From: Bacillota bacterium
GTDB lineage: Bacteria > Bacillota > Sulfobacillia > Fermentithermobacillales > Fermentithermobacillaceae
Assembly (NCBI GenBank): GCA_050260675.1
Contig: JBLNCN010000011.1
Coordinates: forward strand, 745,197-809,196
Direction of reading: 5' to 3'
DNA length: 64,000 nucleotides
The notes beneath the pieces were generated by a model. It did no database searches, was not told the DNA's origin, and saw only the letters and a program-made list of their open reading frames with translations. The position numbers and the translations under genes were made by a program. Position 1 is the first letter of the stretch; the number at the start of each line of letters is the position of its first letter. Below, in pieces: positions 29,553 to 48,980 of the stretch.

Positions 29553-30887
29553 TCACCATATCCCCAGAGCTTGAGCTCTTCTATCCAACACGTCGTTCAG
29601 GGTCGGCCGGCCGATCTCCTGCAACTCGTATCTTACCCTTGTGTGAGGTTTGTCGATCCTGGCAACCTTGGTGAGATCTATGGGGGTAGCGATTACCACG
29701 GCGTCGCATTCGGTCCTGCGGATTGTCTCCTCCAGGTCCTTCACCTGTTCGTCACCGTATCCCATTGCGGGCAAGAGGGTCCCGATCCCGGGGTACTTGC
29801 GGTAAGTGGCCTCAATGCTCCTCACCGCATACGGCCTCGGGTCCACAAGGCTCTTGCAGCGATACCGCTTTGCCGCCACAACGCCCGCACCGTACTTCAT
29901 CTCGCCATGGGTGAGCGTGGGACCGTCTTCTACTACCAGCACTTTCTTGTCCGTTATGAGATCCGGATCGTCGACAAAGATGGGCGACGCCGCTTCAACC
30001 ACGTCGGCGCTCGGGTTCAGGCGCCCAATTGTCTGGCGCACGCGGTCCACGCCTTCAGGCGAGGCAGTGTCGACCTTGTTGATCACCACGATATCGGCCA
30101 TCCGCAGGTTGGTCTCGCCCGGGTGGTAGGTTTCCTCGTGGCCGGGGCGATGTGGATCCACCAGGACAATATGGATATCCGGTTTGTAGAAAGGAAGGTC
30201 GTTGTTGCCCCCGTCCCAGAGCACGATATCGGCCTCTTGCTGGACCGAGTGCAGGATCAGCTGATAGTCTACGCCGGCCCACACGACCATACCCCTATCG
30301 ATGATGGGCTCGTATTCCTCCCGCTCCTCGATGGTGCACTTGTGTTTCACGAGGTCATCGTAGCTGGCGAAGCGTTGGGCGGCCTGCTCGCCGAGGTTGC
30401 CGTAAGGCATCGGATGCCTGACCGCGCTCACCCTCTTGCCCTTCTCCTTGAGGATGTCAAGGACCCTGCGGGTTGTCTGGCTCTTCCCCACGCCAGTGCG
30501 CACCGCCGTCACTGCTATCACGGGTTTGGTCGCCTTCAGCATGGTCGTGTCCGGCCCCATGAGCACGAAGTCCGGTCCCGAAGCCATCACCATCGATGCC
30601 TTGTGCATCACATATTCGTGGGGGACGTCGCTGTACGCGAATACCACCTTGTCTATCTGGTGCTTTTTAATGAGCTCGGGAAGGTCCTCTTCAGGGTAGA
30701 TGGGAATTCCCTGCTCATAACCTCCGCCTGCCAGTTCGGGAGGGTAAAGGCGGCCGGAGATATCGGGGATCTGAGTTGCCGTGAAGAACGCAACACGATA
30801 CTCGGGATTATTGCGGAAAAAGACATTGAAGTTGTGGAAGTCTCTGCCCGCGGCCCCCATGATGGCCACGTTCCTGGGTTTGTCCAT
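29553..30887 (-). CDS. Cyclic 2,3-diphosphoglycerate synthetase-like P-loop NTPase, paralog 2 (G3E-like GxGKS + NKxD motifs)
   Basis: VAIMGAAGRDFHNFN ... AVRTGVGKSQTTRRV ... DIVLWDGGNND ... IVVINKVD. About 60% identical by eye to 33130..34452. The family name is recalled from annotation practice and not verified. Confidence 0.5.
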   Translation of the reverse strand: MDKPRNVAIMGAAGRDFHNFNVFFRNNPEYRVAFFTATQIPDISGRLYPPELAGGGYEQGIPIYPEEDLPELIKKHQIDKVVFAYSDVPHEYVMHKASMVMASGPDFVLMGPDTTMLKATKPVIAVTAVRTGVGKSQTTRRVLDILKEKGKRVSAVRHPMPYGNLGEQAAQRFASYDDLVKHKCTIEEREEYEPIIDRGMVVWAGVDYQLILHSVQQEADIVLWDGGNNDLPFYKPDIHIVLVDPHRPGHEETYHPGETNLRMADIVVINKVDTASPEGVDRVRQTIGRLNPSADVVEAASPIFVDDPDLITDKKVLVVEDGPTLTHGEMKYGAGVVAAKRYRCKSLVDPRPYAVRSIEATYRKYPGIGTLLPAMGYGDEQVKDLEETIRRTECDAVVIATPIDLTKVARIDKPHTRVRYELQEIGRPTLNDVLDRRAQALGIW

Positions 30888-30956: not shown

Positions 30957-32945
30957 TTACCCTGCGATTTCAGTCTCTTCGGTCCTGGGTGTCTTGACCC
31001 AAGCCTTTGGCTCCTTGCCTATGCTCCTAAGGAGCATGGCGCTGGTATAGGGCACAGGGAACACGAACGCAGCCAGGGGCAGCATGAGGAGCCCCAGGTA
31101 GACCAGGATCTGCCCGGCTAACGAATCGGGCTTGCCTGACTCGTCCAGGTACTTGGAATACCGCTTGAACGCGTAGAGGGTAAAGCCCAAGTAGATCACT
31201 GAGAAGGCGCTGAGGACCCACTGCCCTGGAGGTGGGACGATGCTCGGGTCCAAAAGCCCCTTATAGTGCAGCCCCATGGCGATGGGCGGGACGAATGTCG
31301 CTGCCTGATAGGCAACCCACTCGACCTGTCCTTTCACCAGGAGACTCATGTGGAGCCGGTCGCGCTTGCCGGGCTCCGTGTCCTCCCAACTGGCCACCTT
31401 TTCGACCACTTGAAGGTGTCCGGTTCCCCACCGGAGCCGCTGCCGGAAAAAGGCGCGGAAGGTTGGCGGCGTCTGCTCCGACGACATGTAGGGCAGGTAC
31501 TCCGGCCATGCGTTGCAGGCGAGGTACGCTCTCGCCCCGAATTCCAGATCCTCGGTGAGGACCGAGCAATCCCAACCCCCGACCTCGTGGAGCAGGTCTT
31601 TGCTCACAAACACGTTGGTCCCGCCGACAAAGGGCAGGGTCCTAAACAGCCACGGCAGGTACCAGTCGTGGGCGATTGCCTGGTAGAGCGAGGCGATCCT
31701 GCAGAATGGGGTCATCTGGTAGAAGTTGCGGACCTGAAACACTGGTCCCTGGAGCACTCTCGAACCCTCGGGATCAAGCATCCTCCGGTATCCCACATAG
31801 AGCAGTACATCCCTGGCGGGTCTGCTCTCTGCATCGTAGAAGCCGCAGACCTCTGTGCGCGGGTCAAGGAAGGCGATACCCCAGTTTAGGGCCCGCCCCT
31901 TGGTCGAGGGCACCACTTGCCCGGTTCTGACTCCTCCCAGCTTCCCATCGAAGTCGGCGGGCACGACCACGTGCTTAACGGGAGCCGCACCCTGACGGGT
32001 CGAGATCTCGCGCGTAGCCCTCTCCAGGGCTTCCTGGGTTGTTGGGTACATCTCAGTCACGGTGCGGGCAACTGCATCGGGGAGGTCCGTCCAGGCGGAT
32101 TTGCGGACGGCCTCTGCGACTCGGCCTGCGATGAAACCCGTCATACGGGTCACGATGTCGCGGGTGAGCTCGTGGTTCGCCTGCACCGTGTGGCGGATGG
32201 TCTTGTCCAGAGTCCGCCTGCTGGTCCCATCGGAGATCTCGGCAAACGCGGCGATTACCGGCACAGCGACCGCCAGACACGCGGGGTACACCCGGCCCTG
32301 ATCAAGCGGAGAGAGCCACCCGCAGGTCCGGGACACAATGGAGAACAGCCTCTTTCTAGGCGGAGCGCCGTGGGAGCCGGCGATGGCGATGCAGATATCC
32401 CGTATCATCTTGTGCCTCTCCTGAGCGGGCAACGCGGCCAGCTCCGGCACACTGACCGAATACTTCTTTTGAAATCCCTTGGACAGGTATTCGCGGAGAG
32501 CGTACTCGGATAAGATGGAGAGCAGAACGGCTCTCACGCAGGCCTCTTGTTCTTTCGGCAGTGGCTCCCTCTGCTCGCCCCGGAGTATCGACACGGCCGC
32601 GCTCGTGATTTTGGCGCGGTCCGCCTCCGCAGATTGGATTTCCTTTTCGTCGGTGACAACGACCACTTCAAAGCGATCAGCTGGGTACTCCAGGCGGGTC
32701 AGGTGCCTCACCGTGTTCTCAATAACCAGGGACTCATTCCTGGCCGGCACCATCACGCTCACGAACGGCACGTCCCTGCCCAGCGCCCGGGCGGTCTCCT
32801 TCAGATCGCTTTGCCGGAGTGTGAGCCGCCTGTTCCAGTATTTCCTATCGCTGTAGCTCTTCCAGACAAAGAACCTGGCAAAGAGCACGAAAAAGACCAG
32901 ATAGACCGAAAAAGCAACCATGTAGATGCTCTGGGCTGTCGTCAT
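30957..32945 (-). CDS. Processive family-2 glycosyltransferase, polytopic membrane protein, with about 200-aa cytoplasmic insertion in the catalytic domain
   Basis: N-terminal TMs, then VMVPARNESLVIENTV, the DxD region FYDAESRP and QRLRWGTGHLQ (QxxRW), then C-terminal TMs. The start was chosen at Met 32945 (AAGGGAGG RBS). Confidence 0.7.
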   Translation of the reverse strand: MTTAQSIYMVAFSVYLVFFVLFARFFVWKSYSDRKYWNRRLTLRQSDLKETARALGRDVPFVSVMVPARNESLVIENTVRHLTRLEYPADRFEVVVVTDEKEIQSAEADRAKITSAAVSILRGEQREPLPKEQEACVRAVLLSILSEYALREYLSKGFQKKYSVSVPELAALPAQERHKMIRDICIAIAGSHGAPPRKRLFSIVSRTCGWLSPLDQGRVYPACLAVAVPVIAAFAEISDGTSRRTLDKTIRHTVQANHELTRDIVTRMTGFIAGRVAEAVRKSAWTDLPDAVARTVTEMYPTTQEALERATREISTRQGAAPVKHVVVPADFDGKLGGVRTGQVVPSTKGRALNWGIAFLDPRTEVCGFYDAESRPARDVLLYVGYRRMLDPEGSRVLQGPVFQVRNFYQMTPFCRIASLYQAIAHDWYLPWLFRTLPFVGGTNVFVSKDLLHEVGGWDCSVLTEDLEFGARAYLACNAWPEYLPYMSSEQTPPTFRAFFRQRLRWGTGHLQVVEKVASWEDTEPGKRDRLHMSLLVKGQVEWVAYQAATFVPPIAMGLHYKGLLDPSIVPPPGQWVLSAFSVIYLGFTLYAFKRYSKYLDESGKPDSLAGQILVYLGLLMLPLAAFVFPVPYTSAMLLRSIGKEPKAWVKTPRTEETEIAG

Positions 32946-33129
32946 CTGCAGTGAGGGCCTCCCTTGGTCTGGGCGCAACTCTACATGCCCGCCAAATAGT
33001 GTTGCGCCTTGCCAGAGAGGCTATTCGCTTGCTCACGTCGAGCCAAAGGGCCGGCTTCCGAAGACTCCGCGCCAGCCCTTCGGGCTCCTTGGTCTATCCG
33101 AACTCTTCTTCGTCTATCTGAACTGCGGT

Positions 33130-34452
33130 CTAGATAATGCCGCCTACCATTTTGATCGCGTCTTCCAGGGTCGGGGCGCCGATCTCCTGGAGCTCGTAAC
33201 GCACTCTCATTGAAGGCCTATCAACCTTCATAACCCTACGGAGGTCAATCGGAGTGGCGACGATGACCAGGTCGCACGGCACCGCAGCCACCGTCTCCTC
33301 CAATTCTTTCACCTGCTTGGGCGAGTAGCCCATTGCGGGCAAGAGGGGCCCGATGTGGGGGTACTTCTCAAAAGTGGCCGCTATGCTGCCGACGGCGTAC
33401 GGTCTGGGATCGACGAGCTCGGCCGCTCCCCACTTCCTGGCCGCCATGACTCCTGCTCCGTAGCTCATCTCACCGTGGGTCAAGGTGGGACCGTCTTCGA
33501 TGACCAGAACTCTCTTGCCGGCGATCTCCAAGGGTCTCTCAGGGAACACCGGCGACGCCGCCTCGACCACGATGGCCTTGGGGTTAACCGACCGGACGTT
33601 ATTCCTGACCAGCTCGACGTTGGCGGCTTCCGCGGTGTCGACCTTGTTGATGACGACAATGTCGGCTTGGCGCAGGTTGGCTTCCCCGGGATGGTAGCCC
33701 ACTTCGTGGCCCGGCCTATGCGGGTCAACCAGGACTATCTTGCAGTCGGAACGGTAGAAGGGAAGGTCGTTATTGCCTCCGTCCCAAAGTACTACGTCTA
33801 CTTCCTGTTCAGCCCTCTTGAGTATCTCTCCGTAATCCACGCCGGCGTAGACGATGGTCCCCCGGTCCAGATGCGGCTCGTATTCCTCCCGTTCCTCGAT
33901 GGTGCACTTGTGGTGATCGAGATCGCTGTAGTCGGCAAACCGCTGGCACGCCTGGTCGGCTAAGTTGCCGTAGGGCATCGGATGCCGGATGGCGGCAACC
34001 TTCTTGCCTGCAGCCCTCAGGATCTCGGTGACCTTGCGGGTGGTCTGGCTCTTCCCGACGCCTGTCCTCACCGCGCACACCGATATCACCGGCTTGCTGG
34101 ACCGGATGGCAGTTGCCTCGTACCCCAACATGGTGAAATTGGGGCCCGCCGCCAACACGGCCGAAGCCTTATGCATTACGTTTGCATGGCTCTGATCGCT
34201 ATAGGAGAACACGACCTCGTCAACCTTGCTCTTCGAGAGTATGTCGGGAAGGTCTTCCTCAGCGTAGATCGGGATCCCGTCGGGATACAGCTTGCCCGCC
34301 AGCTTAGCGGGGTAGGTGCGTCCTTCGATGTCCGGGATCTGGGTTGCGGTAAAGCAGACCACTTCATAGTCAGGGTTGTCCCTGTAGACCGTGTTGAAGT
34401 TGTGGAAGTCGCGGCCGGCGGCTCCCATGATTACGATCCTCTTTTTCGCCAT
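33130..34452 (-). CDS. Cyclic 2,3-diphosphoglycerate synthetase-like P-loop NTPase, paralog 1
   Basis: IVIMGAAGRDFHNFN ... AVRTGVGKSQTTRKV ... VVLWDGGNND ... IVVINKVD. Same architecture as 29553..30887. Confidence 0.5.
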   Translation of the reverse strand: MAKKRIVIMGAAGRDFHNFNTVYRDNPDYEVVCFTATQIPDIEGRTYPAKLAGKLYPDGIPIYAEEDLPDILSKSKVDEVVFSYSDQSHANVMHKASAVLAAGPNFTMLGYEATAIRSSKPVISVCAVRTGVGKSQTTRKVTEILRAAGKKVAAIRHPMPYGNLADQACQRFADYSDLDHHKCTIEEREEYEPHLDRGTIVYAGVDYGEILKRAEQEVDVVLWDGGNNDLPFYRSDCKIVLVDPHRPGHEVGYHPGEANLRQADIVVINKVDTAEAANVELVRNNVRSVNPKAIVVEAASPVFPERPLEIAGKRVLVIEDGPTLTHGEMSYGAGVMAARKWGAAELVDPRPYAVGSIAATFEKYPHIGPLLPAMGYSPKQVKELEETVAAVPCDLVIVATPIDLRRVMKVDRPSMRVRYELQEIGAPTLEDAIKMVGGII

Positions 34453-34498: not shown

Positions 34499-35428
34499 CT
34501 ACATGACCAAAGCAAGCAGCGCTTTTTGAGCATGCAGCCTGTTCTCGGCCTCATCGAAGATCACGGATCTGGGGGAGTCGGCCACCTCTGCCGTGACTTC
34601 CTCTCCGCGATGCGCCGGCAGGCAGTGCATGAATACGGTGTCCTTGCCGGTCTTCTGCATCATGACGGCGTTGACCTGATAGGGAGCGAGTTTCGCCAAG
34701 CGGACCTCTCGCTCTTTCTCCTGTCCCATGCTGGTCCAGACGTCGGTGTAGACGATGTCGATGTCCCGCAGACCGCTGTCGGCGTCGTTAGTTACAACGA
34801 TCTTGCCTCCGTGGTGCGCGGCGTCCTCTGTGGCCAGCCTGGTGATCTCCTTGTCGGGTTCGTAGCCTGGCGCGCACACCACGCGGACCTCCATGCCCAT
34901 CTTGGCCCCACCGAACATGAGGGAGTGCGCGACGTTGTTTCCGTCTCCCACGAAAGCCAGCTTGAGCCCCTTCAGATATCCGAACTTCTCCTTGATCGTG
35001 AGGAGGTCGGCCAGGATCTGGACCGGGTGAGTCAGGTCGGTAAGGCCGTTGATCACCGGGACCCTGGAGTACTTGGCCAGGTCCTCCACGTCCTTGTGGG
35101 AGAACGTGCGGATCATGATTCCGTCGCAGTAGCGGCTTATGACCTGGGCTGTGTCGGAGATGGTCTCCCCGCGGCCCAACTGCAGGTCATTAACTCCCAG
35201 GTAGAGGGCATGACCGCCGAGCTGGGTCATGGCCACTTCGAAAGACACCCGCGTCCTGGTCGAGGGTTTCGAGAAGATCATCGCCAGCGTCTTGCCCGCC
35301 AGCGGAGTAGGACGGATGCCCGCGTAGAAGTTCGACTTCATGTTCCACGCGGTGTCGACCACGGTCTCGATGTCCTCTTTGGACCAGTCGTGAAGCCAGA
35401 GAAGATGCCTGCCCTTTAAGTTCTTCAT
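34499..35428 (-). CDS. Ornithine carbamoyltransferase (anabolic vs catabolic role not decidable)
   Basis: STRTRVSFE (carbamoyl-phosphate site), HCLPAHRGEEV and DVWTSMGQE. The start was trimmed to the Met at 35428 with a perfect AAGGAGG RBS. Confidence 0.85.
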   Translation of the reverse strand: MKNLKGRHLLWLHDWSKEDIETVVDTAWNMKSNFYAGIRPTPLAGKTLAMIFSKPSTRTRVSFEVAMTQLGGHALYLGVNDLQLGRGETISDTAQVISRYCDGIMIRTFSHKDVEDLAKYSRVPVINGLTDLTHPVQILADLLTIKEKFGYLKGLKLAFVGDGNNVAHSLMFGGAKMGMEVRVVCAPGYEPDKEITRLATEDAAHHGGKIVVTNDADSGLRDIDIVYTDVWTSMGQEKEREVRLAKLAPYQVNAVMMQKTGKDTVFMHCLPAHRGEEVTAEVADSPRSVIFDEAENRLHAQKALLALVM

Positions 35429-35462
35429 TCGAATCCTCCTTTGCGTACGGCCCCTGTGCCGC

Positions 35463-36551
35463 CTACATTGCATTTGTTGCGTTTACCCAGACCTCGCCCC
35501 TCATCTCCAGCTCTCTCCCGCACTTCGGGCATGATCCGCCCTCCAAGCGGGACTCCTCCAGTTCAAGGCCCCCTCGGGCCAGAAGAAGAGTGTGGCACTC
35601 GGGGCAGAGAGTGTCAGCGTAGCCCTTCTTCCACGCGTTGCCGATGTACACATAGTGGAGGTGTTCCCTCGCGATGTCGCGCAGGCGCTCCAGCGTACCG
35701 ACAGGCGTGGCGGGAGACTCGAACTTGTAGTTGGGGAAGTACCTCGACAGGTGCAGTGGAATGGACGGTGACAGTTGGTGAAGCCACCGCGCAAGGCCGC
35801 CAACATCCTCGTCCCTGTCGTTCTCACCGGGTATGACCAGGTAGGTTACCTCGACCCAAGCCTGCTCTACAGCCTGCTCCACTGCCCTCATAACCGGTGC
35901 CAGGCGCCCTTTCACAGTCCTGCGGTAGAACTCCTCGGTCCACCCCTTCACGTCGATGTTCAGCGCGTCCACGAGTGGGAGCGCTTCCGAGAGAGCTTCA
36001 GTAGATATGTACCCGTTGGTGATAAGGACGTTGCTAAGTCCGGCCTGCTTGGCCAGGGCCGCGGTATCGAGGATGAACTCCATGAACACTGTTGGTTCAT
36101 TGTAGGTGTAGGCGATGCCTGTAACCCGCGGGTGCTTGCGCTTTTGTTCTAAGGCCAGGTCGACCACTTGGGAAGGCGTGGCCCTGTACAGATTAGGCCG
36201 CTCCTGGGATATTTGCCAGTTCTGGCAGAACAGGCACCCGAGGTTGCACCCGTAGGACCCTACCGAGAACAGGTAGCTGCCGGGGTGGAAGTGGTATAGC
36301 GGCTTCTTCTCGACGGGATCCAGAGCGAGTGAAGACAGGAGCCCGTAGTTCATGCTGTAGAGGACCCCGTCTCTCACTTCGCGGACGCCGCACACACCTG
36401 TCTTGTCAGAGAGGATGACGCAGCCGTGGGGGCACAGACGGCACCTGACGGCTCCGTCCTCCTGCTTCTCCCAGAACCGGGCCTTCCGTAGTTCCACCGC
36501 AGCGCCCCTCTCACAAATCCCCGGGCAGTAAACTACCAGCCATCGCCCCAC
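35463..36551 (-). CDS. AmmeMemoRadiSam-system radical SAM enzyme
   Basis: An N-terminal Cys cluster CRLCPHGC precedes the radical SAM motif GCNLGCLFCQNW. It sits adjacent to the MEMO1/AMMECR1 gene. Confidence 0.8.
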   Translation of the reverse strand: MGRWLVVYCPGICERGAAVELRKARFWEKQEDGAVRCRLCPHGCVILSDKTGVCGVREVRDGVLYSMNYGLLSSLALDPVEKKPLYHFHPGSYLFSVGSYGCNLGCLFCQNWQISQERPNLYRATPSQVVDLALEQKRKHPRVTGIAYTYNEPTVFMEFILDTAALAKQAGLSNVLITNGYISTEALSEALPLVDALNIDVKGWTEEFYRRTVKGRLAPVMRAVEQAVEQAWVEVTYLVIPGENDRDEDVGGLARWLHQLSPSIPLHLSRYFPNYKFESPATPVGTLERLRDIAREHLHYVYIGNAWKKGYADTLCPECHTLLLARGGLELEESRLEGGSCPKCGRELEMRGEVWVNATNAM

Positions 36552-36578
36552 AGGGAACCTCGACCGACGCGAGATACG

Positions 36579-37988
36579 TTAGTGATATCTCGTTACGGTA
36601 AACCTGCTAAGCCGGACATCCTTCTCAAACGGGCTGATGCCGGCCTTCCGTTTGGCTATGCGCACCTGCTCCTTAGCCGTGTCAACGCCGGGAAGGTCAG
36701 GCAGCAGCAAGCCTTTTCTCCCGCCCTTTTGGACAATCACGCCGTACACTTTTGGATCGAGGTCATCCTCTGACTCCACCGGTTCGCTTTCCGAGAGGAC
36801 GTCCACAGAGTAATCGAGGAACGCCAGTTCGTCTTCGCCGATCGGGTCGAACCTGGGATCTCTGGACGCGGCGCTGACCGCGTTCGACACGATTTCATCG
36901 GCCGCCCGCTCGTGTGTAGGCTCGGTGGTGCCGATGCATCCCCGGAGCATACCTTCTTTGTGGATCGAGACGAATACTCCGGCGGGCTTTGACAACTCGG
37001 GAGGCACGTCCCTTGGCGCCGGATCAACTCTGCCGGACCTCACGTGGCTTTCAACTGTCGCTCTCGCAAGCGAAACCGCGAACGTCTCGCCTTGCCGGAG
37101 CCTTGCCATCCTGTCCTCTCTCGCCTTCGCGACAACCCCCAGCCGGGACTCGCCGGTAGACTCCGGATGCAGAAGGACAACCCCGTATCCCACACCGAAC
37201 GGACCCTCGTAGGAAAGCCTTTCCCCACGAGCAGTGTAGCGGTCCAATGCACCCATCATCATCACGATGGGGCGAAGGCCGCACTCGCCGGCATCCTCCG
37301 CAAGGTCAGCCGGGAAAGTGACAGCCTCTTCGGGACGAAAACCCTGGACTATCTCCACCATCTTGGCGTCGAAGTCTTTGCCCCGTGGGTTGTACCCTGC
37401 TGGGGCATCGGGCTTCAGCCTGTGGGACAGGTCTCCTGAGGCAAGCACCGCGATGCTCCGGCCGAGACCCGCCGCAGCCCGTTCGATGACAGCCCCAAAC
37501 CTGTACAAGTCATAAAGAGGCAGGAACCCCATGTTTACAACGACCAGCCGCCCCGAGAAGCCTTTCTCCACAATGAAGTGAAGGGGAACCACCACGCCGT
37601 GGTCCAGTTCCTTCCCGACACCGTACATTTCCATCCTACGGTCGTCAAGTACCGCAAGCGGTAGATCGCGCTCTGCTTGGGCCTCCCGCTCAATTGCCGC
37701 CACCAGTTCGCGGTCGTTCTCAAGCTGCACCCTCACGCCAGAGGCGCCAAAAGCCGAGAGACTGCCGCGAAGAAGGGGTTCTGCTCGGACCGAGACAGCA
37801 TCGGAAAACGTTGGGCCGTGAGGGGTGATGACCACAAGGGTACCGGCGCCGGAACCGGCGAATGCCTGCCCCAGTCTGTTCAGCGCTTCACACGTAGCGG
37901 AGGCCTCCCTCTCCTCTCCCTTGCCTACCGCAGGCACCACTATGGGAGGGTGGGGGGACAGACCTGCGATGACAACCGCCTGTTTCAT
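36579..37988 (-). CDS. Fusion protein: MEMO1 / class-III extradiol-dioxygenase-like domain (AmmeMemoRadiSam protein B) + C-terminal AMMECR1 domain (protein A)
   Basis: N-terminal half: VVITPHGPTF ... VLASGDLSHRL ... YEGPFGVGYGVV. C-terminal half: AGVFVSIHKEGMLRGCIGT ... DPRF.P ... YGVIVQKGGRKGLLLPDLPGV, the AMMECR1 signature. Confidence 0.75.
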   Translation of the reverse strand: MKQAVVIAGLSPHPPIVVPAVGKGEEREASATCEALNRLGQAFAGSGAGTLVVITPHGPTFSDAVSVRAEPLLRGSLSAFGASGVRVQLENDRELVAAIEREAQAERDLPLAVLDDRRMEMYGVGKELDHGVVVPLHFIVEKGFSGRLVVVNMGFLPLYDLYRFGAVIERAAAGLGRSIAVLASGDLSHRLKPDAPAGYNPRGKDFDAKMVEIVQGFRPEEAVTFPADLAEDAGECGLRPIVMMMGALDRYTARGERLSYEGPFGVGYGVVLLHPESTGESRLGVVAKAREDRMARLRQGETFAVSLARATVESHVRSGRVDPAPRDVPPELSKPAGVFVSIHKEGMLRGCIGTTEPTHERAADEIVSNAVSAASRDPRFDPIGEDELAFLDYSVDVLSESEPVESEDDLDPKVYGVIVQKGGRKGLLLPDLPGVDTAKEQVRIAKRKAGISPFEKDVRLSRFTVTRYH

Positions 37989-37991
37989 GCC

Positions 37992-39062
37992 TTACTGCAC
38001 CACCTTTTGCACGAACGGAGAGGTCGCCGCCCTAAGAAGCGCGCTGTAGCCGGGGATGAACGTAAGGACGTCGCCTGTCTTGATCTTGCGCTCCGAGTCC
38101 TCGACATCGCAAATGAGGTGGTCTGATGACGCGCCGATGATGCTTACCCCGCTCTCCACGGGGCGGAGCGAGTCCGGGTCAACGTCCTGACGCCCGACGG
38201 CGAGTATAGCCCGCCTGCGCCGCCCTCTATCCTCGAACGTGAGGACCACCCCAAAGGCGTTCTGGCCTACTCGCCCAAAGGGTACAGAGGGCTTCTCCTG
38301 CACCTCGATCACTTCTGCGGCCACCCTGAACGCGTTCAGGTGACATCCTGGGACAGCCGAGCGCTCGACGGCTTCGGTGCCCAGGAGTATGCTCTCGCCT
38401 ATCCTGAGTTCGGTCACACCGTGGGGAGTCTCTCCCCTAAGGACCATAGGCATGTTGGCCGAATTGCCCCCGGATACGCGCTGAAGGGGCCGGCCAAGCG
38501 CGGCTTCTATGTTCTCTCTGACCTCAAGGAGCATCTCCATCTTCTCGCGGGTAGGGATGACCCCCCCGTAGCAGGCAAGGTTGGTCCCAATGCCGATGAG
38601 TTCCGCACCGGTAACCTGCGCCATTTCCTTGGCGATCCTGACAGCGTTCTCGGTCAAGACTCCCTCTCTCAGGTCACCCAGGTCAACCATCAGGATCACA
38701 CCGTGGCGCTTCCCCAGCCGGATCGCCGCCTCTCCCAAGAGCCGAACGGTGGCCGGATCGGAGTTGAGGCTTACATCCGCTACCTGGACCGCCTCTGCGG
38801 CGCGGGAAGGGGACGGAGCGCGGAGCAGCACGGTCTCCCCTTCGTAGCCGAGGTTGCGGAGGTTGCGCAGCGTTTCGGTCCTCGAGTCGCCGATGGCGGC
38901 TGCGCCTCCGTCGACCATAGCCTTGGCAACCGCGACGTGCCCCATCACACCTTTTGCCACGCCGACTAGGCGCATCCCCTGCCGCCCCAGGAGGCCGGAT
39001 ATGACCCGTGTGTTGTGGCGGACCTTCTCCGTATCTATATACAGCGCGGGATGGGTGATCAT
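37992..39062 (-). CDS. orr: Alanine-racemase-fold PLP enzyme, probable ornithine racemase
   Basis: GVAKGVMGHVAVAKAM ... VSGGNSANMP, in operon context with oraSE/ortAB/ord. The start was placed at Met 39062 (ATGA overlap with the upstream stop). Confidence 0.6.
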   Translation of the reverse strand: MITHPALYIDTEKVRHNTRVISGLLGRQGMRLVGVAKGVMGHVAVAKAMVDGGAAAIGDSRTETLRNLRNLGYEGETVLLRAPSPSRAAEAVQVADVSLNSDPATVRLLGEAAIRLGKRHGVILMVDLGDLREGVLTENAVRIAKEMAQVTGAELIGIGTNLACYGGVIPTREKMEMLLEVRENIEAALGRPLQRVSGGNSANMPMVLRGETPHGVTELRIGESILLGTEAVERSAVPGCHLNAFRVAAEVIEVQEKPSVPFGRVGQNAFGVVLTFEDRGRRRRAILAVGRQDVDPDSLRPVESGVSIIGASSDHLICDVEDSERKIKTGDVLTFIPGYSALLRAATSPFVQKVVQ

Positions 39063-40423
39063 CGCAACTCCAAGCTCCTTAGCAGAATCTGCCTTGCTTC
39101 GTCCGGATACTCGCGGGAAAGGACGCCGCATGAAGCCATAATATACCGTGTGTCCAGGAAGACCGCGGCATCCTTGGGATAAAGCTCCCTGCCGGGACCC
39201 TGCCCTACAAGCTCCCTGAGGGTATCTTCTCCTCCCGGAAGCTTGGTGAGCGCACCTCCCGTTCCGATCACGGTCCTCACACTGGAGAGGTCTTTGCCCA
39301 AAGCCACGGTCTGCCTGCCGGAAGGCCCGTACAGGTACTTGATCCTTCCTGCGTGGCGGCCAAATGCGGTCCTCGCCGCGTAAGCGGAGAAGTACACAAG
39401 CATCCGCACCATTTCCGGGTCCGTCGGGACGACCTGAAGCCGCCCGAGGAGCGTGCCGGGATCAAACCCCAGGTCCCGTTCGGCCTCATCTTTGACCTGC
39501 TGGTAGATGTTCGCGGCGTTGACGTGGATGCCGAGGTCTCCCTCGACAGTCCGTTTCGCCAACGGCTCGGGGCTTTCCAGGATTGACTGGATCTCGGGGC
39601 TGCCTTTCGCGACCGAGTGGACGTCGGTTGTGGCGCCGCCGATATCCAGCGCGCAGAGATCACCTAGGACCGGGTGCAGCATTTTGCAAGCTTCCATCAC
39701 CGCTCCCGGAGTGGGCATTATGGGGCCGTCCACCATGTCGCGAATCCTGTCCATGCCCGGGGCTCCGGTTATGTGCTCTTCAAAGACTTCCTGGATGACA
39801 GCCCTGGCCGGCTCCACAACAAGCTCGTCAACTCTGGGATAGACGTTGTCGACGAGGTAGACTTTGATGCCGGAGGCCTCAAGGATGCCCCGGACCTCGT
39901 CCTGGGCTGCCACGTTCCCGGCGTATATCACGGGGACCTTAAGGCCGCTTCCGGCCAGCAGCTTGGCGTTATTCACGGCCGTGTCCCGCTCGCCGTAGTC
40001 GACTCCGCCCGCCAGCATTATGATCTTGGGCCGGAGCGATGTAAGGCGGCTAAGGTCGCTCTCGGTTATGTCGCCGGCGGTGACCATGCGCACAACCGCG
40101 CCGGCACCCAGCGCCGCTTCCTTGGCCGCTCTCACGGTCATGTCATAGACGAGTCCGTGGACTGTCATCGAGAGCCCGCCGGCGGCGCTCGACGCCGCCA
40201 TCATCCGTCCCCACATCAGCTCCTCGGGAGCGCCCTGGCTCTCGGGGCTCAGCCTCCGGGACAAATCTCCCACCGCAGCGGATAGTCCTATCGTGACGTC
40301 ACCCTGCTCCACAGTTGTGAGTGACATGCCTTGCCCCAGGAGAGCGGGACTGCTCCCAAGGCTGAACGCGCTCACGACCGTGGTGGTGCTCCCTATTTCG
40401 GCGACCAAGGCATCGACTCTCAT
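39059..40423 (-). CDS. GlmL/MutL-family protein (putative B12-enzyme reactivase/accessory factor of D-ornithine aminomutase)
   Basis: Actin/Hsp70-like fold motifs DIGGATTDVHSV and IGTGGALT, located directly after oraE. The start was moved to Met 40423. Confidence 0.55.
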   Translation of the reverse strand: MRVDALVAEIGSTTTVVSAFSLGSSPALLGQGMSLTTVEQGDVTIGLSAAVGDLSRRLSPESQGAPEELMWGRMMAASSAAGGLSMTVHGLVYDMTVRAAKEAALGAGAVVRMVTAGDITESDLSRLTSLRPKIIMLAGGVDYGERDTAVNNAKLLAGSGLKVPVIYAGNVAAQDEVRGILEASGIKVYLVDNVYPRVDELVVEPARAVIQEVFEEHITGAPGMDRIRDMVDGPIMPTPGAVMEACKMLHPVLGDLCALDIGGATTDVHSVAKGSPEIQSILESPEPLAKRTVEGDLGIHVNAANIYQQVKDEAERDLGFDPGTLLGRLQVVPTDPEMVRMLVYFSAYAARTAFGRHAGRIKYLYGPSGRQTVALGKDLSSVRTVIGTGGALTKLPGGEDTLRELVGQGPGRELYPKDAAVFLDTRYIMASCGVLSREYPDEARQILLRSLELR

Positions 40424-40431
40424 GGCGGCCT

Positions 40432-42663
40432 CTAGCCGTTCCCCCTGTCTTTGGGGAGCTTGCCTTTCCCCTCTTTCCACAGTTCCTGGCGCTTCTTGCA
40501 CAGGAACGACGCGACGTGTATCCCCTTGGTGCCGCGGCCAAAACCGGCATCCAGTCCGGCCGCCACCGCCAGTTCATTTGTTACCTGGGTCCCGCCGCCG
40601 ACCAGCATGAACTGGTCCCGAACGCCTTTCTCCCTGCAGAGCATGTTCAGGCGCTCCATGTTCTTCCTGTGGATGTCGGCGTGGCTGATGATGGTGGATA
40701 TGAGGATAGCGTCGGCGTCTTCCTCGATGGCTGCGTCGACCACCTTGTCGATGGAGACTGACGTGCCCAGGTAAGTCGCCCTAATGCCAAACCCCTCGAT
40801 GCCCCCGTGTTTGATGTCGATGATCTCGCGCATCCCTACCGAGTGCTCATCCTCGCCTACAGTGGCGCATACGACCTTCATGGGGTTTTTGCGGATGTCC
40901 TCCCGTATCTCCTCGGCCGAAAGCACTTCCGGCTTCTCGGGTATTTTGAGCGAGTTCCTGTCTATGGAGAAAGGAAGCCGCGCCTTGATCTCAACCAGAG
41001 TGCCCTCGGCCGGATGAGCGATGCCTTTGTGGATGACCTCCGGCTCCAGGAGTCCGAGCTTGCGCGCCATTTCCAGAGCGGCGTACTCGGCTATCCGCTC
41101 GCTTTCGGCTATGAAGATGGTGAGGGTCAGGTATCCGTCGTTGGCCCACTGAACCTCGGGTTTTATGGCGCCGGTGGCCAGTTCCTTCGCGACCGGTGCG
41201 TACCTTCGCTCCACGTTATCCTCGGGATCGAGTTCGTCGATGAAGACTATCTTGTCGCGATCGCACAGGGTACAGCCGTCTATCAGCGCGCATGGCCGGG
41301 AGCTGTCGCCCGGCAGGTTGTTGTAGCCGAAGTGGTGGCACACGGGGGCCATGTAGTCGCCGTCGCGGGGGACGATGCTGGATGCGGCTATCCCGCCCAT
41401 TGGGTCCCTGCGTATGCCGTCGCCGTTCCTCTCGGGGTACAGTCCCGAGTCCACGAACATACCCTGCTCTACCGCCCGGAAGTACCCCATCTCCTTGACT
41501 TCCTCCAGGTACAGCACCGCGCGTTCCGCCAATTCCCGTACCTTCGCCGGGAGAGGACCGTCCTTGCGAAGCTCAACCATTTCGAGGATCCCGTCCATGC
41601 CAAGGAGGGTCTGCTTGGCGGTGTCTACAGCCGCCAGGTTGTTATAGTGCCAGGGGACATTGCGGCCTTCGTCCGGCGTGATGGTGCTCTGGACGTCGGC
41701 GGAAGTTAGCCGAGACAGCACCAAGTTCATGGTGTGAGTCACCGTGGCTTCGCGGGAGTCCGATTCAATGTACCTGGTATTCTGCTGAGCCCTGATCTTG
41801 TAGTCCGAGAACAGCCACCTTACCGCCACGGCATAGGGTAGGTCGTAGGACATGGCAGGAGCAGGCGGCGCGGTCGGCGGCACGCTGGAAAGGGCGATGT
41901 GGTCCGGGGCCATTCCGATCATCTTTGAGTACGCGCAGTTTATGGCGTGCTGCACCAAAAGCTCGGGCATCACTTTCCAGGCTTCCCTCGCCGTCGCGTT
42001 GGCGTTGTGGGCCCCGTCTATCTGCAGTATCCCGGCGTCTGCCATGATCTTCTTGGCCACGGCGGCATCCACGAAGGACCGCTCCATGTTGACGTTGCGG
42101 TAAAGCACGTTGTACTGGGGGTCTTGATGTGCGCCGTTCACGCCCTCTTCAGCGAACAGCACCGCTATCTCGGGTCCCGCCACTCCCGAAACGTAGGAAT
42201 GGAAGTTCAGGGGCCGGCCCACCTCGTCTTCGATGAGGTCGAGGGCCTTTCTGGTCGCCCTGAGCTGCTTCCTGGTGATCGGAATGCCGCCCACGCCCTC
42301 GGGAGTCCCCTCCAGAAGGCCGTCAATGTGGCTTTGGCCCGTAGTGCGGATGACCATCATGTGGTCGGCGCCGTGCCAGGCTGCCATCCTCATGCGCCTT
42401 ATGTCGTCCTCGAAACGCCCTGAGGCTATCTCGGTGGTGATCACGTAGTCGGGCTGGGGATCGAGCCCCCCGAAGTACTTGGCGGCCGGAAGGGGCACTG
42501 ACCTGTGCAAAGGAGCTGAGGTCTCCTTGTACGTGAAGGGGCCGACCTTCTGGTCCGGTATCTTCGTGCGCCAGGTCCACCCTGTCCGCCTCGGGTGGTA
42601 GTGCTCAAGGTCCTTAAGGACCTCTCCTATATCTATCTTGCGGTTGGGGTCGAGGCGCTGCAT
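40432..42663 (-). CDS. oraE: D-ornithine 4,5-aminomutase subunit E (PLP + adenosylcobalamin)
   Basis: 743 aa. Contains the C-terminal B12-binding DxHxxG (GEDEHSVG) and ...VGGG. Preceded by the small OraS partner. Confidence 0.8.
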   Translation of the reverse strand: MQRLDPNRKIDIGEVLKDLEHYHPRRTGWTWRTKIPDQKVGPFTYKETSAPLHRSVPLPAAKYFGGLDPQPDYVITTEIASGRFEDDIRRMRMAAWHGADHMMVIRTTGQSHIDGLLEGTPEGVGGIPITRKQLRATRKALDLIEDEVGRPLNFHSYVSGVAGPEIAVLFAEEGVNGAHQDPQYNVLYRNVNMERSFVDAAVAKKIMADAGILQIDGAHNANATAREAWKVMPELLVQHAINCAYSKMIGMAPDHIALSSVPPTAPPAPAMSYDLPYAVAVRWLFSDYKIRAQQNTRYIESDSREATVTHTMNLVLSRLTSADVQSTITPDEGRNVPWHYNNLAAVDTAKQTLLGMDGILEMVELRKDGPLPAKVRELAERAVLYLEEVKEMGYFRAVEQGMFVDSGLYPERNGDGIRRDPMGGIAASSIVPRDGDYMAPVCHHFGYNNLPGDSSRPCALIDGCTLCDRDKIVFIDELDPEDNVERRYAPVAKELATGAIKPEVQWANDGYLTLTIFIAESERIAEYAALEMARKLGLLEPEVIHKGIAHPAEGTLVEIKARLPFSIDRNSLKIPEKPEVLSAEEIREDIRKNPMKVVCATVGEDEHSVGMREIIDIKHGGIEGFGIRATYLGTSVSIDKVVDAAIEEDADAILISTIISHADIHRKNMERLNMLCREKGVRDQFMLVGGGTQVTNELAVAAGLDAGFGRGTKGIHVASFLCKKRQELWKEGKGKLPKDRGNG

Positions 42664-43034
42664 GCCCGCTCACCTCCGAACGAAGCCTTCAGCTCGTCCC
42701 ATCCCTTGCCGTTGGCAAGGTCGCGTCCGGCCTCGAGGTACTCTTTGCCTGTCTCTTGCGCGTACCGGAGCACAAGGTGCCCCGCTCCCTTGCCGAGGAG
42801 GCCCCGCTTCTCAGCAGCGCTGACAATGGCGGCTGCCTCCAGGCTGGAAAACCCCATGCGCAGGAGCACTGACCGCTCGATAGAAGGCGAAGTATGGTTG
42901 TATGCGAGATCGTAAAGAGGCTTCACAATATCCTCGGCCAAGCGCCAGAACCTTTCTTTCAGTTGCTCGTCAGAGAGGCCTCTTAAGTGCTCGCGCCGTT
43001 TCTCGAAATCTGATGGCCGCCCCACCGCGCTCAC
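42633..43034 (-). CDS. oraS: D-ornithine 4,5-aminomutase subunit S
   Basis: 133 aa helical protein, translationally coupled to oraE and ortB. Confidence 0.75.
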   Translation of the reverse strand: MSAVGRPSDFEKRREHLRGLSDEQLKERFWRLAEDIVKPLYDLAYNHTSPSIERSVLLRMGFSSLEAAAIVSAAEKRGLLGKGAGHLVLRYAQETGKEYLEAGRDLANGKGWDELKASFGGERACSASTPTAR

Positions 43035-44440
43035 CTCACTCTTACGCCGAGTTCCCCCAGCATCCTGGCGGTATCCGCCTCGGTCTGGGATGAGTCCTCG
43101 GCGAGGAATTTGACTTCTTCCGGACCTGCTTCCCGAAGATTGTTCTTCTCAACGGCGTTTCGGATATACGACCTTCTCATCCTCGTCAGGTCCATTTCGG
43201 TGACATGCAGCTGGTCGAACCGCTCGGGTATCACGATGGCTTTGCCCGGCACGTTGTCCTTTGGATCGCCGCGCCTGACCTCCACCCCGTTCCTGCGGGC
43301 AAAGTCCAGTTGCGCCTGAGGATGCTTGCCGGCGCCGGTGTACTCGGTCTCCTGCACCACTACTATCTCGTCATGGGGGAGTTCCCTGGCCAGGGGGATC
43401 GCTGCCGCCAGCGACGTGTTACCGGCGGGTCCTCTTTCCATGCCTTCGACGGTGGAGAGCGCCTCGGTCACATAGAAGACCTCGCCCTGGGTGACGGTGA
43501 CGTACCTATCCAGATACCTTAGGGGTCTCGCGGCGTTCCGGGGGACGTCTGTCCTGTCTGGCCAGGTGGCGAAAGGCACCCCGAAGCCGGTGTGCCCGGT
43601 GGTGAAGGATTTCCTGTTGAAGTCGTGGTCCGACGCCATATGGAGCCCCGATAGGTCTACACTGGCGCCAATGACTTTGGTGTTAAGGGCGCCCGCTCTG
43701 CGCAAGCCTCTGGCAGTGCCGGTCACGTTTCCGCCGCCTGCATGGGTGACCACCACGTACGCGGGGTCCTTGCCGTAGCGCTCGCGGACGTCCCTGACCA
43801 GCTCCCATCCCAGGGTCTCGATGCCGGCGATGCCGAACGAGCTGTACAAGGAAGCGTTGAAGTACCCGGTCTCTTCGAGGAGTTTCAAAGCGACGTAGAA
43901 CAGCTCCGGGCCGACAGTAAGCTGGATCACTTCAGCCCCGTATGCCTCGCACTTCCTGGACTTCTCGATGATCTCCGGCTGGCCGACCTGCCGGGAGTCG
44001 AACACTTCCTGGACGATGATGCATCCCAGATTGCGCATGGCAGCCTGGGACGCCACAGCCGCGCCGTAGTTGCCGCTGGTGGCCGCAAGCACTCCCGGAT
44101 AACCGGCCTTCTTAGCCTGGTAGGTCGAGATGGACGACCGCCTGTCTTTGAAGCTGCCCGAAGGGTTGGCCGCCTCGTCCTTCACCAGGATCCTGGCGCC
44201 ATACCCAGGCTTTGAAGTCATCCTGACCAGTTCGGTGATATTCTTCAGCTCCAGGAGCGGCGTGTCGCCGACGCCCACGTCCTTTTGGATCTTCCTTACT
44301 TCCTCAAAGGGATAGGCGGCCTTGGTCATCATGGCTTCGTAATCAAACGCGATGCCGCCGGTCTCGAACTCGCCGTACTCTACGCCCAAGGCCTTCCTCA
44401 TGATCTCGGCCCTGCGAGCCATAACCGCAGCGTAGGACAT
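43031..44440 (-). CDS. ortB: 2-amino-4-ketopentanoate thiolase beta subunit (PLP, Trp-synthase-beta fold)
   Basis: PLP-lysine motif SGSFKDRRS, the glycine loop HAGGGNVTG. The start was trimmed to MSYAAVMARRAEIM; the 69-aa Arg-rich track extension is spurious. Confidence 0.8.
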   Translation of the reverse strand: MSYAAVMARRAEIMRKALGVEYGEFETGGIAFDYEAMMTKAAYPFEEVRKIQKDVGVGDTPLLELKNITELVRMTSKPGYGARILVKDEAANPSGSFKDRRSSISTYQAKKAGYPGVLAATSGNYGAAVASQAAMRNLGCIIVQEVFDSRQVGQPEIIEKSRKCEAYGAEVIQLTVGPELFYVALKLLEETGYFNASLYSSFGIAGIETLGWELVRDVRERYGKDPAYVVVTHAGGGNVTGTARGLRRAGALNTKVIGASVDLSGLHMASDHDFNRKSFTTGHTGFGVPFATWPDRTDVPRNAARPLRYLDRYVTVTQGEVFYVTEALSTVEGMERGPAGNTSLAAAIPLARELPHDEIVVVQETEYTGAGKHPQAQLDFARRNGVEVRRGDPKDNVPGKAIVIPERFDQLHVTEMDLTRMRRSYIRNAVEKNNLREAGPEEVKFLAEDSSQTEADTARMLGELGVRVR

Positions 44441-44448
44441 GTCCCTAC

Positions 44449-44760
44449 TCAAACGCCCCTCCCCCTTTTCAGCATCGCCCGGAGTTCCTGGGCGATTGGG
44501 GCAAGTTCGGGCACCAAAGGCCCGTAGGTGTGGGCGTAGCCTGGGTCCAATCGCGTGAGGGTGCCGGTGACGATCCTTCCGGCTTGGGTTTCTATCTCGA
44601 CTTCCTCTCCCACCGCCGCCTCGCCGCGGGCGCGTCCCTTGATCCACGCCTCGAGAGGCACTTTGCTTGTGTCATCGGGGACGCCTGCTGCCCGCTCTCC
44701 CACAGGCAGAATCACTTGGTGTATCTCAACCAAGTCTCCCACCCTGCATCTTGCGTCCAT
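44449..44760 (-). CDS. ortA: 2-amino-4-ketopentanoate thiolase alpha subunit
   Basis: About 100 aa, immediately upstream of ortB with a 6-nt gap to ord. Confidence 0.75.
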   Translation of the reverse strand: MDARCRVGDLVEIHQVILPVGERAAGVPDDTSKVPLEAWIKGRARGEAAVGEEVEIETQAGRIVTGTLTRLDPGYAHTYGPLVPELAPIAQELRAMLKRGRGV

Positions 44761-44766
44761 CCCCGG

Positions 44767-45819: not shown

Positions 45820-46033
45820 CGTTTCACCTCTCTTCAAGTTTTAGGGGAACATTTTCGTTAGGAGTCTGCCCATACGGACCGCATTTCTCCTACCTTATGC
45901 ATTCTTGCATATAAAGGAAAATCCTGCTGCTGTCGGACCTAGGGTGGTGGCGGAGCTACCCCGGGCCCCCTCGGCACGTGTCAACCTCCCCATCAGCAAA
46001 ATCAGAACCCGTCGTTCTGCCCATCGATAATCC

Positions 46034-48068: not shown

Positions 48069-48479
48069 TTAACGCTTGGAGAACTGCGGAGCTTTGCGGG
48101 CCTTCTTGAGACCGTACTTGCGGCGCTCCTTCATCCGCGGGTCGCGGGTGAGGAACCCTGCCTTCTTGAGCGAGGCGCGAAGGTTCTCGTCGACCACGAC
48201 GAGCGCCCTGGCCACGCCATGCCTGCAGGCGCCGGCCTGGCCGGATAGCCCGCCGCCCTCAACGTTCACGAAGAGGTCAAACTTGCCCTCGGTCTCCGTG
48301 AGTTTGAACGGAGCGACTACAGCCTGCTCCAGGCTGGGGTTCATGAAGTAGGACGACAGGTCCTTGCCGTTCACGTCGATTTTGCCGGTACCCGGAAGGA
48401 TCCTTACCCTTGCGACAGCGTTCTTACGCCGCCCGGTCGCGAAAACTGCTTCTGACAATACTACTCTCCTCCTTGCCAC
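48069..48479 (-). CDS. rpsI: 30S ribosomal protein S9
   Basis: C-terminal [18 protein letters not shown]. Confidence 0.95.
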
Positions 48480-48883: not shown

Positions 48884-48980
48884 GTACGACTCGGCCAACG
48901 TGAAAACCTCCTTGATGCTGCCAATGCAAGCAGTACTTATTCTAGCGGTGCACCTGGGCTGGGTCAAGAGTATCTGGTTT

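Follow-up and report, generated by a model that had tools for sequence, protein, structure and literature searches.

The window, the 64-kb stretch of DNA analysed here, carries two adjacent genes on its minus strand (Table 1). The first encodes a protein in which a LigB-like domain, a helical linker and an AMMECR1 domain follow one another, and the second, downstream, encodes a radical-SAM enzyme. The fused gene is an intact ORF whose translation shows a single terminal stop and no internal stops. An earlier sequence-only reading of this DNA had placed both domains in one 469-aa frame, and this is borne out, as are the motifs it had quoted, which were found at residues 52 (VVITPHGPTF), 181 (VLASGDLSHRL), 347 (MLRGCIGT) and 427 (LLLPDLPG). 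A stop or frameshift between the halves was looked for and is absent. The range that had been assigned to the fusion (35463–37988) covers the fused gene but also takes in the separate radical-SAM gene.

Table 1. Features of the two-gene locus, in window coordinates
Feature	Coordinates	Strand	Basis
Fused gene, 469 aa	36579..37988	(-)	LigB-like domain + helical linker + AMMECR1 domain
N-terminal LigB-type (class III extradiol dioxygenase-like) domain, aa 10-270	37179..37961	(-)	PF02900
Inter-domain linker helix, aa 283-299	37092..37142	(-)	DSSP on AF2 model
C-terminal AMMECR1 domain, aa 305-467	36588..37076	(-)	PF01871
Spacer, 27 nt, fused gene to radical-SAM ORF as listed	36552..36578	(-)	Sequence read
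AmmeMemoRadiSam radical-SAM enzyme (amrS-type), 362 aa as listed	35463..36551	(-)	TIGR04337

The identical fused protein is on record twice, as an NCBI protein from a metagenome-assembled genome and in a Logan assembly. In NCBI it carries the name 'AmmeMemoRadiSam system protein A' (TIGR04335), a name given to Bacillota proteins of about 470 aa. An AlphaFold2 (AF2) model of the whole chain has a pLDDT of 95.9 and a pTM of 0.90, the latter implying a fixed packing of the domains. Block-mean pLDDT in the linker region is 93–97, and two linker residues, R298 and E301, are nearly invariant: at least 90% of the sequences in an alignment of 105 homologues, each about 470 aa long, have them. The two identical records, the conserved linker and the confident AF2 model show that the junction arises neither from misassembly nor from a frameshift error.

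The C-terminal half was correctly read as AMMECR1. It scores 151.3 bits against 25 on PF01871 (E 2e-44) and 133.9 bits on the protein A model TIGR04335 (cut-off 99), covering the full model (positions 3–175 of 175). The motifs R349-G-C351-I-G and D377-P-R379-F380 are invariant in the 105 homologues and are the same as the RGChG and DxRa signatures described for AMMECR1 (Balaji and Aravind 2007, PMC2034487). Among solved structures, this half matches PH0010 (1VAJ) and MM0484 (1ZQ7).

The downstream ORF scores 312 bits on TIGR04337 (cut-off 220), with the alignment beginning at residue 24. Judged from the sequence, its true start may be a GVG-preceded GTG 20 codons downstream of the listed one, which would widen the 27-nt spacer. 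The enzyme has a CX3CX2C motif at C102/C106/C109 and extra cysteine clusters at 37/40/44/54 and 316/319/341/344. Its next-best families are glycyl-radical activases, nearest PflA, YjjW and NrdG, and PflA is its sole solved relative by sequence.

Assignment of the N-terminal half is less simple. On the LigB model PF02900 it scores 124.3 bits (gathering score 26.3, E 6e-36) over model positions 4–268 of 269. On the protein B model TIGR04336, its score of 20.9 bits falls short of the cut-off of 26, and the match spans only profile positions 142–249 of 270; no match to Pfam Memo (PF01875) was found at E<=1. In the domain scan with the AmmeMemoRadiSam and Pfam models, the locus as a whole exceeds the cut-offs of AMMECR1/TIGR04335 and of the radical-SAM model TIGR04337, but not those of the protein B model and Pfam Memo. 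Some orthologues of the fused protein reach 26–41 bits on TIGR04336, some pass Pfam Memo, and stand-alone relatives score 17–42 bits. Since orthologues reach such scores, the boundary between a 'divergent B' and a 'LigB paralogue' is partly definitional. All dioxygenase equivalog models likewise fall far below their cut-offs, the HpaD model giving 33.8 bits against 316.

Residues H13, H57, H130, D186, H189 and C236 of the N-terminal half are invariant in the 105 homologues, and E235 is present in 104 of them. H13, H57, H189 and E235 are matched by the same amino acids in HpaD (8IQ8), an Fe(II) dioxygenase that has been characterised; a 2-His-1-Glu metal triad and a catalytic His are conserved, together with the neighbouring invariant Cys. 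H13, H57, E235 and H189 would correspond to H12, H61, E242 and H195 of LigB. Against solved structures, the family profile found TK2203 (93 bits) and HpaD (66 bits), and no match to MEMO1 at E<=10. A Foldseek search with the AF2 model gave TM scores of 0.87 for TK2203 (5HEE), 0.70–0.79 for catalytic dioxygenases and 0.59–0.62 for MEMO1. With hhalign, the SGDLSH and (E)CG segments align with Memo motifs, the Cys of (E)CG pairing with the Memo-family Cys. G265, V266, G267 and Y268 are also invariant, and in the AF2 model they sit in a loop that connects two long strands. The domain occupies the B position, N-terminal to A in the fusion, and in split relatives the LigB-like gene directly precedes the AMMECR1 gene.

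On the profile scores and the predicted fold, we conclude that the N-terminal half is a LigB-type dioxygenase-like domain of the same superfamily as Memo and not a true MEMO1-type 'protein B'. The domain fills the B slot as a paralogue from the same superfamily, not as an orthologue of MEMO1-type B. The description of this half as MEMO1/extradiol-dioxygenase-like stands as regards superfamily and B slot; the MEMO1-type part fails on TIGR04336, Pfam Memo, profile and fold. Nor is the half an unrelated dioxygenase, as the domain found in the B slot is a related one.

Counted by species genomes, at least 594 carry a gene for a relative of the fused protein, and every one of the 80 best matches is itself a fusion. 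Among the 150 nearest cluster representatives about 70% are fused, the remainder being split three-gene loci. Two of these (L090 and L091) have the order LigB-like, AMMECR1, radical-SAM, although in L091 the contig ends within the third gene, which has no annotation; in a third (L092) the order is radical-SAM, LigB-like, AMMECR1. Crude counts (nearest-neighbour and UPGMA/Fitch) show the split forms intermingled with the fused ones in sequence space, and conversion between the two appears to be free. A second fused class, of Memo type (Memo–AMMECR1), is likewise abundant. The canonical layout of three separate genes is not what the window shows; it has two genes, one of which encodes both A and the B-slot domain. 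The sequence-only reading had held that the parts are normally separate genes, but the survey of fusion frequency gave the opposite picture: the fused form predominates in this family, and fusion is not unusual. The fused gene is the usual form of the two-gene system in Firmicutes-type bacteria and standard for Bacillota.

A radical-SAM gene adjoins the fused gene in 71 of 80 species-genome loci (downstream in 67, upstream in 4; median gap 17 nt) and is absent from the flank in 7, some of them cut by contig ends. Other flanks vary among loci. Searching with an HMM of the N-terminal half and two genuine B domains revealed no second LigB- or Memo-type ORF in the 64-kb window or in 85 related loci. 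Hosts of the relatives are mostly strict anaerobes. In a survey of 81 loci that included the window, the recurrent neighbours were cwlD (20 loci), rplM-rpsI, ecf, truA and cdaA-cdaR-glmM, and the usual position of the module in Clostridia is rplM-rpsI-cwlD-module. In the window, a 9-kb ornithine cluster lies between cwlD (47268–48002) and the module. With cwlD and rpsI found just beyond this cluster, the ornithine/arginine genes beside the module look like a local insertion.

The architecture is a published one. Fusions of AMMECR1 with a 'ring-opening dioxygenase' and a neighbouring radical-SAM gene were described by Balaji and Aravind (2007, NAR 35:5658, PMC2034487), who also put forward the shared-pathway inference and a catalytic Cys. 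The window locus has the same architecture, radical-SAM neighbour and RGChG/DxRa site as that class and does not differ from it materially. Memo–AMMECR1 fusions annotated amrB ('AmmeMemoRadiSam system protein B'), with amrS after them, occur in Ideonella dechloratans (WP_151123310.1) and Segatella hominis (WP_218456557.1). Like the window protein, these consist of a superfamily domain followed by AMMECR1 (464–491 aa) with a radical-SAM gene downstream, and their AMMECR1 halves are 33–34% identical to that of the window. In contrast, their N-terminal halves are genuine Memo domains (PF01875 154–194 bits, TIGR04336 231–255 bits) to which BLASTP detected no similarity in the window N-terminal half. 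The profile of the Memo-type fusions found MEMO1 at 126 bits and no dioxygenase.

The nearest solved structure to the N-terminal half is TK2203 of Thermococcus kodakarensis (PDB 5HEE, Foldseek E 1.6e-21), a putative extradiol dioxygenase. The first two His, the Asp and the catalytic His of the window domain recur in it, but W, D and S stand in place of H130, E235 and C236. TK2203 is a stand-alone protein of 262 aa from a narrow, mostly Thermococcales family, and no AMMECR1 or radical-SAM neighbour of this family was seen in the one Pyrococcus-type contig examined. HpaD (8IQ8), aminophenol dioxygenase, DesB, LigAB (1B4U/1BOU) and DOPA dioxygenase have the same fold, with the triad and catalytic His in common. 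The N-terminal half differs from these catalytic class III dioxygenases in its invariant C236 (absent from HpaD), its fusion to AMMECR1, its pairing with a radical-SAM enzyme and its anaerobic hosts. Human MEMO1 (3BCZ, 7KQ8) and AMMECR1 are eukaryotic homologues of the two halves, belonging to the same superfamilies but existing as separate proteins; MEMO1 is a distant structural match to the N-terminal half (TM about 0.6, 12–14% identity). The two eukaryotic proteins are not known to have a radical-SAM partner. Literature searches on AmmeMemoRadiSam, AMMECR1 with LigB, MEMO1 with radical SAM, and TK2203 found no functional study.

The best explanation of the locus, which we consider probable, is a self-contained two-gene AmmeMemoRadiSam module in which a LigB-type domain in the B slot, joined to AMMECR1, works with a PflA-like radical-SAM enzyme. 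The latter would cleave SAM to give a 5'-deoxyadenosyl radical and so start the modification of one substrate, which would be processed between the LigB-like mononuclear metal site and the Cys351 cleft of AMMECR1. This chemistry would have no need for O2, since most hosts are strict anaerobes. The substrate would most likely be a nucleotide or RNA base, or else a small metabolite, and the role a housekeeping one; adjacency to ornithine/arginine genes in the window would be incidental. Against this, a full extradiol-dioxygenase site points to O2 chemistry, and such chemistry is hard to reconcile with an O2-labile radical-SAM enzyme and anaerobic hosts.

If the N-terminal half were instead protein B proper (MEMO1-like, TIGR04336), the locus would simply be the canonical three-gene system with B and A fused. 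Such a fusion would account for the shared superfamily, the position before AMMECR1 and the radical-SAM gene, the TIGR04336 scores of orthologues, which reach or pass the cut-off, and of stand-alone relatives, which fall on both sides of it, the orthologues that pass Pfam Memo, the hhalign pairing of SGDLSH and (E)CG with Memo motifs, and a JGI label of 'protein A/protein B' on one relative. We nevertheless regard it as unlikely. The window domain itself matches TIGR04336 over a partial stretch and Pfam Memo not at all, while true B halves score more than 200 bits; the family profile leads to TK2203 and dioxygenases and the Memo-type profile does the reverse; and both Foldseek and BLASTP set the domain apart from Memo. 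At the other extreme, an ordinary O2-dependent aromatic ring-cleaving dioxygenase, fused to AMMECR1 by chance, would explain the full-length LigB match and the metal triad and catalytic His that align with HpaD. This we hold to be extremely improbable, given the equivalog scores, the mostly strictly anaerobic hosts, the lack of aromatic-catabolic neighbours in the locus survey, the invariant C236 that HpaD lacks and the radical-SAM gene that adjoins in most loci.

Two further readings concern the partners of the fused protein. The radical-SAM enzyme could be a true protein activase that acts on the fused protein itself, giving it a glycyl (or thiyl) radical at the invariant hairpin S-Y-E-G-P-F-G-V-G-Y or at Cys351. 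In one form of this idea, to which we give a very small chance, as we do to the idea as a whole, the PflA-like enzyme would target the C-terminal hairpin, an invariant element of the LigB/Memo-type domain (FGVGY here; RVVGY in the Memo type), and generate a glycyl radical there. Glycyl-radical activases are indeed its nearest characterised relatives, the G265–Y268 residues are invariant in their loop between two long strands, the R-V-V-G-Y kept in Memo-type fusions resembles the RVxG[YFW] glycyl-radical motif, and human MEMO1, lacking a known radical-SAM partner, has Ser at the Gly position. However, the TK2203 family keeps the second Gly (PTYFGM) and shows no radical-SAM neighbour, so the Gly may be structural, which weakens the evidence for a glycyl radical; the Arg is missing from the LigB-type motif, and the fused protein has no glycyl-radical-enzyme barrel fold. 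Were this reading true, it would define a new, metal-containing class of glycyl-radical enzyme and give chemistry its first way into the Memo/AMMECR1 problem. Alternatively, the module could belong functionally to the ornithine/arginine catabolic operon around it, with orr upstream and ornithine carbamoyltransferase (OTCase) downstream. It shares the operon's strand, the gap between the orr stop and the fused gene's start is just 3 nt, and an OTCase gene is found downstream in 6 of the 81 surveyed loci, window included. Membership of this operon is nonetheless very improbable, as orr or ora stands beside the module in no other surveyed locus, the recurrent neighbours are cwlD, rplM-rpsI and the others named above, and the window's own cwlD and rpsI lie just past the cluster. 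A functional link of the module to the ornithine/arginine genes was rejected on synteny.

Since 2007 the literature has contained the fusion, its radical-SAM neighbourhood and the inference of a common pathway, and routine annotation already incorporates them. MEMO1 and AMMECR1 are linked to human disease and have no agreed biochemical function, the prokaryotic radical-SAM linkage being the main clue to a shared pathway, and to this the window adds no new clue. What the comparison brings out is that either of two distinct superfamily branches, Memo-type or LigB-type, can supply the B-slot domain, and that in strict anaerobes the LigB-type branch has retained a complete dioxygenase-like metal site. 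As fused and split forms appear to interconvert freely, the fused Clostridial proteins, which are confidently modelled, would be convenient single-chain subjects for biochemistry.

The 469-residue ORF encodes a LigB-type N-terminal half and an AMMECR1 (protein A) C-terminal half, next to the gene for a radical-SAM enzyme; the two genes are referred to below as the module. The sequence-only reading had placed two domains in a single frame, and this was confirmed: the ORF is uninterrupted and contains all four motifs quoted (aa 52, 181, 347 and 427), and the protein scores 133.9 bits against the NCBIfam protein A model TIGR04335 (cut-off 99). An identical protein is recorded in a Logan assembly and at NCBI, where it is named 'MAG: AmmeMemoRadiSam system protein A [Bacillota bacterium]'. 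Across 105 aligned homologues of about 470 aa, conservation of the linker residues R298 and E301 is ≥90%, and an AlphaFold2 model (mean pLDDT 95.9, pTM 0.90) contains an inter-domain helix at aa 283–299. We conclude that the fusion of the two domains is genuine.

Features of the window, with the domains of the fused protein
Feature	Position	Strand	Remarks
rplM, rpsI	48069-48967
cwlD	47268-48002
Ornithine cluster	about 37992-45837	-	ord, ortA, ortB, oraS, oraE, or-4, orr
Fused ORF	36579-37988	-	469 aa; no interruption
LigB domain PF02900	aa 10-270 of fused protein		Pfam, 124.3 bits, E 6e-36
AMMECR1 domain PF01871	aa 305-467 of fused protein		Pfam, 151.3 bits
Hairpin SYEGPFGVGY	37185-37214	-	aa 259-268 of fused protein
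Radical-SAM ORF	35463-36551	-	362 aa; 27 nt downstream of fused ORF
Cys-rich tail of radical-SAM ORF	35463-35620	-	CxxC...CxxC at 316/319/341/344, zinc-ribbon-like
OTCase ORF	34499-35473	-	324 aa, mechanical ORF
Paralogous pair	33130-34452 and 29553-30887	-	440/444 aa, 65% identical; weak CobW/HypB-type P-loop match only
Family-2 glycosyltransferase	30957-32978		673 aa; flanked by the paralogous pair
BREX-type phage-defence island	4155-12778	-	BrxA-like, 172 aa; PglZ, 574 aa; PglXI-type methyltransferase, 901 aa, 850 bits; BrxC/PglY, 1255 aa, DUF6079, 850 bits

The N-half had been taken for a MEMO1-like protein B, and this assignment does not hold. Against the protein B model TIGR04336, the fused protein reaches 20.9 bits (cut-off 26), over model positions 142–249 of 270 only, and Pfam Memo finds no match in it even at E<=1. 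Among PDB sequences, the N-half family profile matched TK2203 (5HEE, 93 bits), HpaD (8IQ8, 66 bits), aminophenol dioxygenases, DesB, DOPA dioxygenases and LigB, with no MEMO1 chain at E<=10. Foldseek searches with the model likewise ranked TK2203 first (TM 0.87, E 1.6e-21), followed by catalytic LigB-type enzymes (TM 0.70–0.79) and, below them, MEMO1 (TM 0.59–0.62, 12–14% identity). H13, H57, H130, D186, H189 and C236 are invariant in the 105-sequence alignment, and E235 is present in 104. In LigB, the counterparts of H13, H57 and E235 are presumably the triad His12/His61/Glu242, and that of H189 is the catalytic His195. HpaD, a characterised Fe(II) enzyme, has identical residues at the positions aligned with H13, H57, H189 and E235 but a Gly opposite C236, which hhalign pairs with the Cys conserved in Memo-type proteins. 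By profile matches, fold ranking and conserved residues, the N-half belongs to the LigB type and has a complete dioxygenase-like site and an extra invariant Cys. It fills the B slot as a LigB-type paralogue and is not a MEMO1-type B.

Memo-type fusions were found by tblastn of the radical-SAM protein against plasmids. In Ideonella dechloratans (464 aa) and Segatella hominis (491 aa), an 'amrB' gene precedes amrS; its N-half matches full-length Memo (154–194 bits) and TIGR04336 (231–255 bits), and its C-half is AMMECR1 (TIGR04335, 158–188 bits). By BLASTP, only the AMMECR1 halves of these proteins align with our fused protein (33–34% identity). The Memo-type family is large: its best 120 matches are all PF01875+PF01871, nearly all of about 440–510 aa, and its profile matched MEMO1 (126 bits) and none of the LigB-type enzymes. 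Since these fusions are distinct in the N-half, there are two parallel fused classes, Memo-type and LigB-type.

Protein A and B parts had been described as normally separate, a view that our survey of fusion frequency contradicts. A first protein search gave 7382 matches, the best 120 of which are all LigB+AMMECR1, nearly all of about 440–500 aa, and many are named protein A. When each species is represented by a single genome, a relative is encoded at no fewer than 594 loci; all of the best 80 are fused, and they come from Clostridia, Peptococcaceae, Lachnospiraceae, Negativicutes, Chloroflexota and others. For the N-half, a search of 1.84 billion cluster representatives gave 2213 matches at E<=1e-3 (561 at E<=1e-30). 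Among the best 150, 103–107 are fused and 40 stand alone (239–292 aa; 39 of them 263–292 aa), the latter stopping just past the conserved GPFGVGY strand. Gene context for three of the stand-alone proteins shows split systems, ordered LigB-like, AMMECR1, radical-SAM (L090); LigB-like, AMMECR1 and a third gene truncated at the contig end (L091); or radical-SAM, LigB-like, AMMECR1 (L092). Split and fused forms are interspersed: of the 40 split proteins, 28 have a fused protein as nearest neighbour. Frameshift errors may lie behind some split forms. Stand-alone forms score 17–42 bits against TIGR04336 and fused orthologues 20–41 bits; judged by these scores, the LigB-type branch straddles a very low cut-off. 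We conclude that fusion is the rule, not the exception, in the LigB-type family. In P0335 (460 aa), a close relative of the N-half, another C-terminal region with a weak DivIVA/Wag31-like match (23 bits) replaces AMMECR1.

The 362-aa ORF scores 312 bits against TIGR04337 (cut-off 220), which identifies it as the system's radical-SAM enzyme. After TIGR04337, it scores best against the families of the glycyl-radical activases YjjW, PflA and NrdG; PflA is its sole solved relative by sequence, and its own cluster motif is C102-x3-C106-x2-C109. An N-terminal Cys cluster (C37/C40/C44/C54) is also present; shorter homologues (about 275–286 aa, mostly Lachnospiraceae-type) apparently lack the C-terminal Cys tail. 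The listed GTG start (window 36491–36551) lies 20 codons upstream of the homologue and TIGR04337 starts, and translation more likely begins at the GTG of aa 21, which has GAGAGGGG before it. Of 80 genome loci, 67 have the radical-SAM gene next to the fused gene on its downstream side and four (all Chloroflexota or Dehalococcoidia) on its upstream side; the radical-SAM gene is distant in two and absent from the flank in seven. The median gap between the two genes is 17 nt. In L019, L033, L035 and L047, loci of these two groups with the gene upstream, the fused proteins are shorter (435–440 aa) and their linker is reduced; an AMMECR1-like fragment ORF (76 aa, 10756–10986) is also present in L035.

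Other neighbours vary among loci. Upstream, the recurrent ones are cwlD (20 loci), rplM-rpsI, ecfA/T and truA; downstream, they are cdaA-cdaR-glmM. Neither the surveyed flanks nor the 64-kb window contained a second LigB- or Memo-like ORF. The window order is rplM, rpsI, cwlD, a GNAT gene, the ornithine cluster, the module and OTCase. In Thermincola potens and about 20 further loci, cwlD stands immediately before the module, whereas here rplM, rpsI and cwlD lie beyond the ornithine genes; these genes therefore look inserted at a conserved cwlD–module junction. The cluster is a complete-looking oxidative ornithine degradation set, with a GlmL-like or-4 product. OTCase neighbours the module in only six loci, this window included. 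Its ORF overlaps the radical-SAM stop by 11 nt; with the ATG near 35428 as start, which has AAAGGAGG before it, the product has 309 aa, as in the Logan contig, and a 34-nt gap is left.

Balaji and Aravind 2007 (PMC2034487) described fusions of AMMECR1 to a dioxygenase and the radical-SAM neighbour, and from these inferred that the proteins act in one pathway, with a catalytic Cys and possibly in RNA base modification. For 'Memo-Ammecr1 systems', Kaur et al. 2020 refer to Burroughs et al. 2019. Literature searches found no functional study. The fusion itself was previously described. The observation made from sequence stands, and its interpretation is partly supported: a LigB/AMMECR1 fusion beside the radical-SAM gene is retained, a MEMO1-type B and a fusion as exception are not.

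The hairpin does not vary among LigB-type proteins. In Memo-type fusions the position reads RVVGY, resembling the glycyl-radical motif RVxG[YFW], whereas human MEMO1 has SSVSY and TK2203 retains the second Gly alone. One could speculate that the radical-SAM enzyme is a protein activase acting on the invariant hairpin Gly; this reading is weakened by the TK2203 family, in which the Gly is retained without a radical-SAM neighbour. In the mechanism we propose, the module would instead be an enzyme set of two proteins and three domains, in which the radical-SAM enzyme would initiate radical chemistry on one substrate, which that enzyme would share with the metal site and with the Cys cleft of AMMECR1. 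This chemistry would probably proceed without O2, and the role of the module is probably housekeeping.
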